Assembly: GCA_021741585.1 (NCBI GenBank)
Contig: JAIOXN010000001.1
Location: forward strand, 609,059 to 673,058
Reading direction: 5' to 3'
Length of the DNA stretch: 64,000 bases
Source of the DNA: Aquiluna sp.
GTDB taxonomy: Bacteria > Actinomycetota > Actinomycetes > Actinomycetales > Microbacteriaceae
Both the position numbers and the translations under genes were made by a program. Positions 34,732 through 37,880 of the stretch are shown one piece after another; positions within the stretch are counted from its first letter, which is position 1; every line of letters begins with the position of its first letter. Under the pieces are notes generated by a model. The model was not told the origin of the DNA. It saw only the letters and a list, made by a program, of their open reading frames with translations, and searched no databases.

Positions 34732-35589
34732 ATGACTTTGACCAAAGAGCACTGGGTTCTCACATTTGTTTGCCCAGATAAAAAAGGTATTGTCCACGCC
34801 ATCACAGGTGCGGTTGTGGAAATTGGCGGGAACATCACCGAGAGCAAGCAATACACCTCTTTGGACACCGGTCGCTTCTTCATGAGATTGCAGATCGAGG
34901 CGGAAATCACCAAGGAAGCCTTTGGCCAACAGTTTGAACAGATCGCCAAAGACTTTGAAATGGAATATGTGCTCGACCACGTCGAGCGCAAAATGAAGAC
35001 CTTGGTCTTAGTATCCAAGGCTGGGCACGCTCTAAACGATTTACTTTTCCGCCAGCGAGCAGGGCAGCTTCCAATCGAAATCCCAATGGTTTTTGCTAAT
35101 CACCCGGAACTCAAAGAGCTCACCAATTTCTTTGGAGTCCCTTTTGAGAGTCATGAGATCAAGAACAATGTGGACAAGGCGCTTTTTGAAAAACGACTTC
35201 GTGAGTTCATCCACGAGAACCAGATTGAGCTAATTGTTCTGGCCCGCTACATGCAGATTCTCTCCCCTGAGTTCTGCAAAGAATTTGCCGGCAAAATCAT
35301 CAACATCCACCACAGCTTCTTGCCTGGATTCAAAGGCGCTAACCCATATGCACAGGCTCACGCCAGAGGTGTGAAGCTCATTGGTGCCACCGCTCACTTT
35401 GTAACCGAGGATCTCGATGAGGGACCAATCATCGAACAAAACGTCACCCGAGTTGAGCACTCGGAATCAAAGAGCCAATTAGTTTCAATTGGACAGGACG
35501 CGGAGTCCAAAACCCTGACCCAGGCGGTCAAATGGTTCGCCGAACACCGCGTCCTGCTTGATGGTCAAAGAACCATCATTTTCCGCTAA
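34732..35589 (+). CDS. purU: Formyltetrahydrofolate deformylase.
   Basis: N-terminal ACT domain plus formyltransferase core (INIHHSFLP, HFVTEDLDEGPII). Confidence 0.85.
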   Translation: MTLTKEHWVLTFVCPDKKGIVHAITGAVVEIGGNITESKQYTSLDTGRFFMRLQIEAEITKEAFGQQFEQIAKDFEMEYVLDHVERKMKTLVLVSKAGHALNDLLFRQRAGQLPIEIPMVFANHPELKELTNFFGVPFESHEIKNNVDKALFEKRLREFIHENQIELIVLARYMQILSPEFCKEFAGKIINIHHSFLPGFKGANPYAQAHARGVKLIGATAHFVTEDLDEGPIIEQNVTRVEHSESKSQLVSIGQDAESKTLTQAVKWFAEHRVLLDGQRTIIFR

Positions 35590-37810
35590 AGCGCCACAGA
35601 CCAAGCCCAATCAACAGAGCTAGAAATGCCGCAAAAATCCATAATGGGTTGAACATCACTGAATCTTGACTTTGGATAGTTTCGGCCCGAGGTTCGGGAT
35701 CGTTGATGGCAACTACCGTGATCGGCTCGGCCGTTGGTGCCGTGTTTTCTTCGAGAGTCAATGGTTCTGCACTTTGCGCATCATTAGGCTCTTGAGTTGT
35801 TTCTTCGAGAACTTTCGACTCGCGAATCGCAGTTGGAGCAGTAAGGCTAGGGGTTCGGGCTGGGTCTGACTCTTTTTGAACTTCGCTAGCGACTTCGTTG
35901 ACAACCTGTTCTAGCACTTCCTCAAGAATGGCTTCAGGGGTGGTTTCTTGGATTTGAGTTTCTTCCTCGATCACCGGATCTGCTGGAACAAAATCTGATG
36001 AGGAGTCGGGAATTGTTGGAGCAGGAGACCAAACTTCTTCTTGGACGGGATCCTCGGGCTCAGAAATCTCTGGCTGAACCGGATCTTGAACAACGATTTC
36101 ATCGACTTCAGGCTCAAGGGGCTCTTCGACGAGTAGTTCCAAATTCTCGATTTGAAGACTAGCGATGGAATTGGGTCCAGGATTGCCAGCCGCATCGGTG
36201 GCAAGGCTCTGATCAAAATTCCAGATTGCTGTGCCATAGCCGCAGCTAGCAAAAAATTTCCACACAGATGCTTCTACTTCTTCGTATTGAGAATCGCAGG
36301 CTTCGCTGAAATCAAAAACCACATCAGCTGGATTGAAGTCGACCACTTCTGAGAAACTCAAAACCGCGCTGTATAGAAATGCGTCTTCAACTGTCACAGA
36401 CTCTTGACTCCAAGAAGCAGATGGTCCGATCGTGTCAGTTGTGAATCCGAAAACTAGATCTAGTTCAGGGCCCATATTTCCGAGGCTGTCTGATATCGAG
36501 TTCGCGGCTAGGGTCAACAAGTGTTCGCCCTCGAAGCAGTCCGAAACAACAATTGTGCTTGCAAGTTCCCCGAACTCGATTCCCCCGCAATTAGAAATAG
36601 AGAATGCCGTGAGATCTGGATTGACAAGACTTCCGTCGATTGCGAAACCGATTTCGACACTATTCTTACTAAACAATTCTTGACTTGAAACAAATTCAAA
36701 TGTGGGTGCCGTCAAATCGATATCCAATGACGCAACCGAATTTGACTGAGGCCCGAAAAAGGCATCCCCCAGAGAAAGCGCCAATAGTGTGACCTCAACC
36801 GGGGTGGAATTGCAATTCACCACGTCAATTTCAGCCTGAGTCCCGAGCATTCTTATCTCACCAATCTCACAACCCGTGCCAGATAATGTGATGTCGGCAT
36901 CGCTCAAGCCAGTGATTTCAGAACTCATCGACAATTCAAAGGTCAATTTATCGCTTTGCACCTGTGTTCCAGAAAACCCCAAAACTTGAAGGGGAAGTTG
37001 ATATCTCAAAACCAGATAGCCGTTACCGGTCTGGACCCCTTGGGTGTGAACAGGTGAAGTTACATAGTCGTTTCTTGCATAGCTGGAACCGCCACCGCCG
37101 CCACCGCCGTCGGAACAGCAGTCATCATCATCGGCACCGCCACCGCCACCGCCGTACCAACCGCCGCCGCCACCGCCACCGCCTGCATTCCAGCTAGTTC
37201 CTCCCGACCCGCCTTGCGCAAAAGAGCCGCTGGCTGGAGACGTGCCGCCATTGGAATAGCCTGCGGAACCTCCGTTGGATTGGGTTCCTGCACCACCGCC
37301 TGAACCCTGCCCGGATTTCCCAGCCTCGGCAACTAGGCCTCCGCCTGATCCACCCATGGCTCCTGAATATCCTCCGGTGCCTCCACCGCCACCGGCCACC
37401 GCGATCCTCGAGTTAGTCGCGGAGTTCAAACGAATATCTGTGGCACCGCCACCGGCACCTTCGTTTCCACGATTACCACCCGAAGCGCCACCACCGTTGT
37501 ATCCACCAGGAGCAGATGCTGCCACCGAACCTGCGCCACCAACAACGATGATGAGCTGTTCGGGGAGATTGGTTAGGACTCCAGTGAGCTTGCCGCCGAG
37601 ACCACCTCTACCACCACTGGCACCAAAAGCTTCAAATTCAATTTCCTGAACTCCAGGAGGAACTTCAAATACAACATGGCTGCCTGAGAATTCAAAAGTT
37701 GCTTCACAAATCCCTTGCGTGCAGACCTCAGCAGCTGAAGCAGAATGGGCGATGAGCATGGCCGATAAAAGCGCAGAACTGGCTGCAAACGAAATAAGTT
37801 TATTTTTCAT
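35576..37810 (-). CDS. Large secreted glycine-rich/acidic surface protein with a C-terminal membrane anchor.
   Basis: Signal peptide MKNKLISFAASSALLSAMLIAHSASA. About 190-aa GGxGG-rich region containing a DDDDCC run. Beta-rich middle. Pro/Glu/Asp-rich linker. Terminal hydrophobic helix plus RFSGK tail with no LPXTG. Confidence 0.6.
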   Translation of the reverse strand: MKNKLISFAASSALLSAMLIAHSASAAEVCTQGICEATFEFSGSHVVFEVPPGVQEIEFEAFGASGGRGGLGGKLTGVLTNLPEQLIIVVGGAGSVAASAPGGYNGGGASGGNRGNEGAGGGATDIRLNSATNSRIAVAGGGGGTGGYSGAMGGSGGGLVAEAGKSGQGSGGGAGTQSNGGSAGYSNGGTSPASGSFAQGGSGGTSWNAGGGGGGGGWYGGGGGGADDDDCCSDGGGGGGGSSYARNDYVTSPVHTQGVQTGNGYLVLRYQLPLQVLGFSGTQVQSDKLTFELSMSSEITGLSDADITLSGTGCEIGEIRMLGTQAEIDVVNCNSTPVEVTLLALSLGDAFFGPQSNSVASLDIDLTAPTFEFVSSQELFSKNSVEIGFAIDGSLVNPDLTAFSISNCGGIEFGELASTIVVSDCFEGEHLLTLAANSISDSLGNMGPELDLVFGFTTDTIGPSASWSQESVTVEDAFLYSAVLSFSEVVDFNPADVVFDFSEACDSQYEEVEASVWKFFASCGYGTAIWNFDQSLATDAAGNPGPNSIASLQIENLELLVEEPLEPEVDEIVVQDPVQPEISEPEDPVQEEVWSPAPTIPDSSSDFVPADPVIEEETQIQETTPEAILEEVLEQVVNEVASEVQKESDPARTPSLTAPTAIRESKVLEETTQEPNDAQSAEPLTLEENTAPTAEPITVVAINDPEPRAETIQSQDSVMFNPLWIFAAFLALLIGLGLWRFSGK

Positions 37811-37823
37811 GAGGACAAAGTAA

Positions 37824-37851
37824 AACTCCCTGCAATTTCTTGCAGGGAGTT
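37824..37851 (-). terminator. Rho-independent terminator of icd.
   Basis: aactccctgcaa-tttc-ttgcagggagtt followed on the minus strand by UUUU. A second hairpin, cagcccccgaaaagggctg, lies at 37857..37876. Confidence 0.6.
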
Positions 37852-37880
37852 ATCCACAGCCCCCGAAAAGGGCTGAGTTA

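Follow-up and report, generated by a model that had tools for sequence, protein, structure and literature searches.

The locus and its gene

The 64,000-nucleotide (64-kb) stretch of Aquiluna sp. DNA analysed here, referred to below as the window, carries on its reverse strand, at 35576..37810, an open reading frame (ORF) that starts with ATG and encodes a surface-protein candidate of 744 amino acids (aa). The product is 100% identical to the NCBI entry 'hypothetical protein K9G13_05230 [Aquiluna sp.]', whose source is a metagenome-assembled genome (MAG) of the genus Aquiluna, Microbacteriaceae, Luna-1 subcluster. A sequence-only reading had described a signal peptide, a glycine-rich block, beta-rich repeats, a linker and a C-terminal transmembrane (TM) helix in this protein. 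That domain order has been confirmed, and the assignment of the domains given below, with a glycine-rich head of the type known from the ALK and LTK receptors, an immunoglobulin-like (Ig-like) stalk, an acidic spacer and a membrane anchor, is proposed with high confidence.

The neighbours of the gene are folD, glyA, purU, icd, an amylase-family gene and ABC transporters/exporters, and the order icd, surface-protein gene, purU, glyA recurs in the complete Aquiluna borgnonia genome and in almost every one of 25 species-level loci. In two loci (L005 and L014) icd is displaced and does not lie between the amylase-family gene and the surface-protein gene. Across the loci, identity reaches 82-90% for icd, 75-83% for purU and 80-90% for glyA, whereas it is 36-56% for the surface protein, which is thus much less conserved than its neighbours, a pattern common for surface-exposed proteins. 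The gene is cellular, vertically inherited and intact, and the idea that it might be a frameshifted pseudogene can be set aside because more than 20 species-level genomes carry it unbroken and in synteny. No paralogue was found within the window.

The protein contains ten cysteines and its mature form has a net charge of -82. PF12810 is the sole Pfam family reported for it at E up to 1, and an NCBIfam scan at E up to 1 returned 0 families, sorting-domain models included. Residues 1-26 (37733..37810, reverse strand, as for all features of the protein) form a Sec-type signal peptide, MKNKLISFAASSALLSAMLIAHSASA/AE, where the slash marks the cleavage point; it has lysines at positions 2 and 4 of its n-region, a hydrophobic core and a cleavage-type site ASA/AE, and is without a lipobox. 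In the full-length AlphaFold2 (AF2) model, which was built with an alignment of 52 orthologues, a helix at aa 2-18 lies within this signal peptide, and all orthologues have an equivalent N-terminus. The same alignment underlies the domain lengths and identities given below, while cysteine and tail counts refer to 118 full-length homologues.

A glycine-rich head of the ALK/LTK type

The segment that directly follows the signal peptide (aa 27-272; 36995..37732) is a glycine-rich domain of the ALK/LTK type, with a TNF-like beta-sandwich, glycine-rich segments and two invariant cysteines, C30 and C35. A search for a glycine-rich Pfam family, suggested by the sequence-only reading, gave a clear answer: PF12810, the ALK/LTK glycine-rich domain, matches aa 58-264 with 73.8 bits against a gathering score of 24.5 (E=2.8e-20), the alignment spanning profile positions 11-236 of 243, and it is present in all 120 among the homologues listed. 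Structure prediction agrees with this assignment. The full-length model places aa 30-560 at a predicted local distance difference test (pLDDT) score above 90, and a model of the head only (aa 27-275) has a pLDDT of 93.3 and a predicted template modelling score (pTM) of 0.90. Ten beta-strands are contributed by both ends of the head sequence and enclose a confidently modelled region free of helix and strand; the TNF-like beta-sandwich with a glycine-rich subdomain inserted between its strands, which is the fold of PF12810, is therefore seen in the predicted model.

Foldseek lists ALK and LTK among the matches of the full model. The head model matches the ALK glycine-rich domain, and the next-closest solved folds are phage tail proteins. 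Among predicted viral structures (BFVD), many phage and giant-virus virion proteins match the head at TMq 0.62-0.71, and three PHROGs families (7388, 5811 and 1589, all of unassigned function in PHROGs) match it at E=1e-19 to 4e-14. A search with the head profile reached 13,656 representative protein clusters at E up to 1e-3, 417 of them at E up to 1e-30. Among the proteins found are giant proteins of 2,000-7,800 aa (P0121-P0133 and others) in which this glycine-rich domain occurs as many as nine times, and these multi-copy proteins outscore the Aquiluna proteins against the Aquiluna head profile.

Glycine makes up 37% of aa 58-264, and about 12 glycine-rich segments of invariant length can be read in the head sequence, for which the model is confident and DSSP assigns neither helix nor strand. 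The sequence-only reading had proposed a comparison of the length of the glycine-rich region between strains, and no such variation was found: the head measures 245-249 aa in the 52 orthologues, with invariant glycine runs and an identity of 61%. At the DNA level, the codon repetitiveness noted earlier does exist as short arrays of GGN codons reported by Tandem Repeats Finder (TRF), but it is modest and imperfect and draws on all four glycine codons (GGC 36, GGT 36, GGA 22, GGG 12). The two long forward-strand ORFs antisense to the gene (36964..37197 and 37275..37649) had rightly been judged artefactual, since both lie wholly inside the glycine-rich coding region and result from its GGN codons. 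A sub-threshold Rfam match to sR28, an archaeal C/D-box small RNA, on the forward strand at 37544..37601 (19.4 bits against a gathering score of 39, E=0.041) is likewise antisense within this region and is almost certainly due to chance.

The acidic loop and the cysteines

Between two invariant glycine runs of the head lies a short acidic loop, A-DDDD-CC-S-D (aa 226-234; 37109..37135), which is a candidate for a vicinal disulfide and/or a cation site. The stretch aa 226-243 reads ADDDDCCSDGGGGGGGSS and is situated inside the glycine-rich block, and its C231 and C232 are, as had been noticed earlier, the sole adjacent cysteines of the protein. Most orthologues share the loop consensus x-D-D-x-x-C-C-x-D with the same two flanking glycine runs. 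The loop is also the lowest-confidence block of the head model, at pLDDT 75.

Two adjacent cysteines were found in the loop of 107 of the 118 homologues and none in 6, while a single cysteine never occurred; in the remaining 5 the loop was not located by the search pattern. That the two residues are present together or absent together suggests a vicinal disulfide between C231 and C232. The total is ten cysteines in 109 proteins, eight in 7 and eleven in 2, and C30 and C35 are invariant also in those homologues that lack the adjacent pair. With one conserved pair per module, the simplest reading of these counts would be five disulfides, namely C30-C35, the vicinal C231-C232 and one in each of the three Ig-like repeats described below.

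The loop also proved useful as a marker of the family. A hand-made DNA pattern for WYGGGGGGxDxxxCCxD was found in 25 species-representative genomes, all of the Aquiluna/Microbacteriaceae type, and in 0 contigs of IMG/VR. It replaced patterns back-translated from the family alignment, which had given 600 matches in genome contigs and viral contigs, 0 of them confirmed by tblastn, such glycine-rich patterns being too unspecific.

Stalk, spacer and membrane anchor

Behind the head, aa 273-560 are beta-rich and form an all-beta region with pLDDT above 90 in the AF2 model. This region divides into three repeats, each with an invariant cysteine pair: repeat 1 (aa 273-368; 36707..36994) with C314/C333, repeat 2 (aa 369-462; 36425..36706) with C408/C425 and the motif D441-x-x-G-N445-x-G-P448, and repeat 3 (aa 463-560; 36131..36424) with C505/C523 and the motif D539-x-x-G-N-x-G-P, so that D-x-x-G-N-x-G-P is common to repeats 2 and 3. 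An Ig-like fold is assigned because Foldseek matches the region to tandem Ig domains, e.g., those of NCAM2, titin, invasin and protocadherin, and because the modules are homologous to one another, with hhalign probabilities of 98.1% (repeat 1 against 2), 97.5% (repeat 3 against 2) and 82.4%. The threshold of the Pfam Big families was not reached: at E up to 10 the Ig-like region gave a single weak match, to Big_12 in repeat 3, which has 16 bits where 27 are required (E=0.014). The repeats are Ig-like in fold and stand outside the curated Big families. Between orthologues they are about 30% identical.

The stalk is followed by a disordered acidic segment rich in proline and glutamate (aa 561-718; 35657..36130), modelled at pLDDT below 50. 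The linker rich in proline, glutamate and aspartate of the sequence-only reading is thus present, with a length of 158 aa and not the roughly 170 given there; it contains 21 prolines, 31 glutamates and 10 aspartates and has a net charge of -36. Its length ranges from 98 to 182 aa across orthologues, with an identity of 22%, and Pfam gives no match in the spacer and anchor at E up to 10. A disordered chain can extend by up to about 0.3 nm per residue, and 158 residues could reach about 50 nm, enough for a Gram-positive wall. The spacer may accordingly be regarded as a putative wall-spanning segment that crosses the peptidoglycan.

The protein ends in a membrane anchor (aa 719-744; 35579..35656) composed of N-P-L-W, a predicted TM helix at aa 722-741 with pLDDT 83-90 and the tail R-F-S-G-K, so that the chain stops about 3-5 residues past the helix. 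In homologues, an aromatic P-W or P-Y often stands directly ahead of the helix. The earlier description of a single C-terminal helix followed by RFSGK and lacking LPXTG has been borne out: neither LPXTG nor LAXTG occurs in the last 60 aa, and such a string is found in only 1 of the 118 homologues, by which measure the protein is not a sortase substrate. A crude scan, which covered the 64-kb window, gave no credible sortase-like TLxTC gene or LPXTG substrate. To speak of an atypical anchoring mode, as had been done, overstates the case. Retention presumably needs no more than a plain stop-transfer helix and a short basic tail, and the end of the tail is dictated by an overlap with purU, to which we return when a sorting signal is considered.

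The spacer between icd and the gene

The 70-nt spacer that separates icd from the gene (37811..37880, reverse strand) is nearly invariant across Aquiluna, while the protein encoded downstream is about 40% identical. From 5' to 3' it contains a species-variable hairpin, a near-invariant 12-bp stem and a TAnnnT box. The near-invariant hairpin (37824..37851, reverse strand) has the sequence TGTGGAWAACTCCCTGC..GAAA..GCRGGGAGTTTTA, read from 37851 to 37824, with a GNRA-type loop and a U4 tail. It was picked up by a terminator scan and is present in 21 of 22 aligned loci, with 97.7% of cells paired; two stem pairs show compensatory changes, and a U-G wobble seen in 11 of the 22 sequences is legal on this strand only, since the opposite strand would have a C-A mismatch there. 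The TAnnnT hexamer (37817..37822, reverse strand), which resembles a -10 element, lies 6-7 nt upstream of the ATG and is conserved in 22 of 22 aligned loci as TACTTT, TAGTTT, TAGCTT, TACCTT, TATTTT or TAGCGT. No Shine-Dalgarno sequence precedes the ATG.

The hairpin probably serves as terminator of icd and/or as a cis-regulatory element, and the spacer as a whole would most simply be read as this terminator followed directly by the promoter of a leaderless mRNA. Conservation of the stem sequence itself is unusual for a terminator. Locus L014 retains the 5' half of the hairpin (TGTGGATAACTCCCTGCAAGAAA) and the TAnnnT box but has a decayed 3' arm, which hints at a role of the 5' half beyond that of a terminator stem. 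Rfam holds no family for the hairpin, and the sR28 match in the coding region was its only result at the locus.

The hairpin has also left its mark on the databases. Homologues such as P0005, P0011, P0017, P0023, P0035 and P0048, among others, carry N-terminal extensions of the type 'VDNSLQEIAGSF...', e.g., VDNSLQEIAGSFTF(L)GMK, which are in-frame translations of the hairpin; their start codons have therefore been called too far upstream, and the true start is the methionine of the signal peptide. The window's own hairpin is not in frame with the ORF. A further observation concerns the contig JAURFH010000370.1 (L003; 2,480 bp), labelled as part of a Verrucomicrobiota MAG, on which the same hairpin and then an orthologue of the gene come after an icd fragment 87% identical to that of the window. 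The contig almost certainly comes from Aquiluna and was placed in that MAG by a binning error.

Comparison with known systems

The closest solved ligand-binding glycine-rich domain is that of the ALK/LTK receptors (PF12810; PDB 7LRZ, 7NX3, 7LIR and 7NX0). In ALK it contains 14 polyproline II (PPII) helices (PMC12227593), and in both receptors it is followed by an EGF-like module (PMC10605310). The Aquiluna protein differs from these receptors in being bacterial, in lacking the MAM and LDLa domains and the heparin-binding region, in having three Ig-like repeats and an acidic spacer in place of the EGF-like module, and in having no kinase or other cytoplasmic domain behind its TM helix, where only a tail of 4-5 aa is found. 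The DDDxCCxD loop with its adjacent cysteines defines the Aquiluna lineage. Judged as a whole protein, it is thus no ALK/LTK receptor kinase, neither a kinase after the TM helix nor an EGF-like module being present. The UniRef name 'receptor protein-tyrosine kinase' on the A. borgnonia orthologue P0046 is a misnomer, because neither that protein nor the one in the window has room for a kinase domain. The UniProt-derived names 'receptor protein-tyrosine kinase' and 'PE-PGRS family protein' also stand on the BFVD matches A0A8S5QTR7, A0A8S5SE10, A0A2P0VMX4 and others, and the viral entries appear to owe the kinase name to the shared glycine-rich domain.

A TNF-like and glycine-rich unit is also found in phage tail proteins, namely the tail fibre gp24 of cyanophage Pam3 (7YPX) and the tail wing brush gp33 of mycobacteriophage Bxb1 (9D93), with a more distant likeness in gp38 of Salmonella phage S16. 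Pam3 gp24 has been described as a TNF-like sandwich with loops arranged in a lattice of 12 glycine-rich motifs, at 39% glycine; the unit is similar to C. elegans ALK and has been proposed to recognize the host receptor (PMC9608196). This description fits the Aquiluna head. The Aquiluna protein departs from the phage fibres in its signal peptide and TM anchor. It lacks baseplate-docking helices, its gene stands in no phage context and has no chaperone gene beside it, and its head loops are conserved, whereas those of phage tips are hypervariable.

With respect to its overall design, the protein follows a logic common to wall-spanning surface proteins of Gram-positive bacteria, which combine a signal peptide, a distal functional domain, an Ig-like stalk, a proline-rich or acidic spacer, a hydrophobic C-terminus and basic residues. 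Unlike the sortase-dependent LPXTG proteins among them, it has no LPXTG or LAXTG motif and is presumably held by the TM helix itself. ActA of Listeria is a surface protein held by a C-terminal hydrophobic tail. The mycobacterial PE_PGRS proteins, which depend on type VII secretion, resemble the Aquiluna protein in being actinobacterial, surface-associated and glycine-rich, and differ from it in their PE domain, fold family and export route and in lacking a TNF-like sandwich; they were not among its PDB or Pfam matches. Bundles of PPII helices have been predicted in PE_PGRS proteins, forming polyglycine-II 'sail' domains (PMC13243192).

Proposed role and alternative explanations

Domain identity, predicted fold, architecture, conservation and synteny were all obtained by computation. 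Taken together, they make it rather probable that the gene encodes a wall-spanning, surface-displayed binding protein, anchored as a type I membrane protein and conserved in the genus Aquiluna. Export by the Sec pathway and cleavage of the signal peptide would yield the mature surface protein. Its outermost part would be the globular ALK/LTK-type head, a TNF-like sandwich with inter-strand loops formed by rigid, tightly packed glycine-rich segments, which are polyglycine-II helices in the solved homologues; next inward would come the stalk, made of the three mutually homologous Ig-like repeats with probably one disulfide holding each of them together, and then the disordered, strongly acidic Pro/Glu spacer, whose roughly 160 aa would suffice to span the peptidoglycan, with one TM helix and a basic cytoplasmic stub of 4-5 residues at the innermost end. 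Surface display, the wall-spanning role of the spacer and the disulfides, C231-C232 included, are what we infer from this layout. In such an arrangement the head would be held outside the wall as a binding module for an extracellular ligand. By analogy with the only characterised relatives, namely ALK/LTK, which bind their cytokines, and the tips of phage tail fibres, for which binding to host receptors has been proposed, we consider a binding function of the head about an even call. Since a cytoplasmic domain is lacking, the protein cannot signal in the manner of ALK, and it would work like an adhesin or a receptor-binding protein.

Several points weigh against this proposal. The neighbours are all housekeeping genes, and no partner gene or operon context points to a ligand. 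Neither phmmer with the protein nor hmmsearch with the family profile found a match among PDB sequences, ALK included, and the link to ALK consequently rests on the Pfam profile and the predicted fold. The polyglycine-II conformation of the glycine segments is suggested by homology, and the disulfides are predicted as well. The DDDxCCxD loop, which is the most conserved non-glycine feature, may be structural and not the ligand site, because it is conserved whereas the receptor-binding tips of phages are hypervariable. Finally, no paper combining 'Aquiluna' and 'glycine-rich' was found in the literature.

Four other explanations were weighed, none of which is favoured. The first, which we hold to be quite unlikely, is that the flat glycine-rich lattice has no specific ligand and that its surface works physico-chemically instead, by binding ice or as an antifreeze, or else as something like an anti-aggregation or anti-grazing coat. 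Polyglycine-II bundles do act as antifreeze proteins (PMC12227593), those of snow fleas and springtails being the model here; with the mature net charge of -82, these very small planktonic cells could carry a brush of charges, and the glycine-rich core is the most conserved part of the protein.

A dedicated C-terminal sorting signal, in which P-W, the TM helix and R-x-S-G-R/K would form a new motif comparable to those of LPXTG/sortase and PEP-CTERM/exosortase and lead to covalent wall attachment, is very unlikely. The C-terminus does look tripartite and conserved, with P-W or P-Y often before the helix and two tail classes, R..G[RK] at the end of 93 and RKMMVR at the end of 16 of the 118 homologues. 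However, the 3' ends of the gene and of purU converge and overlap by 14 nt (35576..35589), which fixes the tail end S-G-K-stop: these codons are the reverse complement of ATT TTC CGC of purU in a shifted frame. An overlap of 14 nt (most loci) or 25 nt (those with RK[IM]MVR tails) was found in 17 of 17 loci with both ends readable, and in these the purU C-terminus RTIIFR, followed by the stop codon, is invariant. The two tail types, ..SG[RK] and RK[IM]MVR, are therefore one antisense DNA stretch read in two frames, and the tail is conserved because its last codons lie antisense to the invariant end of purU; the only basic residue outside the overlap is R740. The conserved W-R-x-S-G-R/K end was for these reasons rejected as a new sorting motif. 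Further arguments against such a signal are that no NCBIfam sorting-domain model matched, that the crude scan of the window found no sortase-like gene or LPXTG substrate, and that no second ORF in the window has the same type of C-terminus, ordinary membrane proteins aside.

That the gene is a domesticated or remnant phage receptor-binding protein, such as a prophage tail fibre, could be suspected from the phage tail proteins that are the closest solved folds after ALK, from the many phage matches in BFVD and from the PHROGs matches, but we consider it extremely unlikely. The head directly follows a signal peptide and the protein has a TM anchor, whereas a docking N-terminal domain, phage gene context and an assembly chaperone, which mark virion proteins, are lacking; the gene lies between icd and purU/glyA/folD with no phage genes near the locus, tblastn of the head against 50,697 phage genomes gave no match, and the loop pattern specific to the family occurs in the 25 Aquiluna-type genomes, against 0 matches in IMG/VR. 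Scarcely credible is also the beta-solenoid or flexible, extensible filament of the sequence-only reading, with a length that varies by repeat slippage, for which the 37% glycine in GGxGG and GGGGG strings and the short GGN-codon arrays could speak, but which is contradicted by the fixed head length and invariant glycine runs of 52 orthologues, by a confident globular model that matches the compact ALK glycine-rich fold, by PF12810 as the sole Pfam match with no repeat-type family detected, and by the shortness and imperfection of the TRF arrays.

Returning to the surface-displayed binding protein, a more specific role can be envisaged, which we regard as speculative and on the whole unlikely. 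The interspecies identity of 36-56%, against 75-90% for the housekeeping neighbours, would suit a recognition protein engaged in an arms race, either as a phage receptor or decoy or as a cell-cell or cell-particle adhesin of ultra-small planktonic cells, in which the DDDxCCxD loop with a strained vicinal disulfide might act as a redox- or cation-dependent ligand switch.

Significance

The fold and the Pfam family are already known, and automated pipelines name the orthologues 'glycine-rich protein'. What sets the Aquiluna family apart is the conserved acidic loop with its adjacent cysteines, together with a protein sequence of low conservation encoded at a constant position among housekeeping genes. 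For annotation, two corrections follow: the label 'receptor protein-tyrosine kinase' is wrong, and the starts of many homologues have been miscalled across the conserved hairpin. What is known of the ALK/LTK glycine-rich domain comes almost entirely from one human oncogenic receptor and a small number of phage tail structures, while its cellular bacterial members are unstudied; a literature search on the ALK glycine-rich domain, polyglycine and bacterial homologues found no paper on them. Should the arms-race role prove true, the surface of Aquiluna would display a module that phages use at the tips of their tail fibres, and cellular bacterial genes, and not phages alone, would be a possible reservoir for the ligand-binding domain of metazoan ALK/LTK. 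The Aquiluna family is compact, single-copy and syntenic, and belongs to a cultivable genus with a complete A. borgnonia genome. It may thus become a tractable model for asking what the bacterial ligand of this fold is, how a polyglycine-II lattice folds after Sec export and whether adjacent cysteines form a functional vicinal disulfide.

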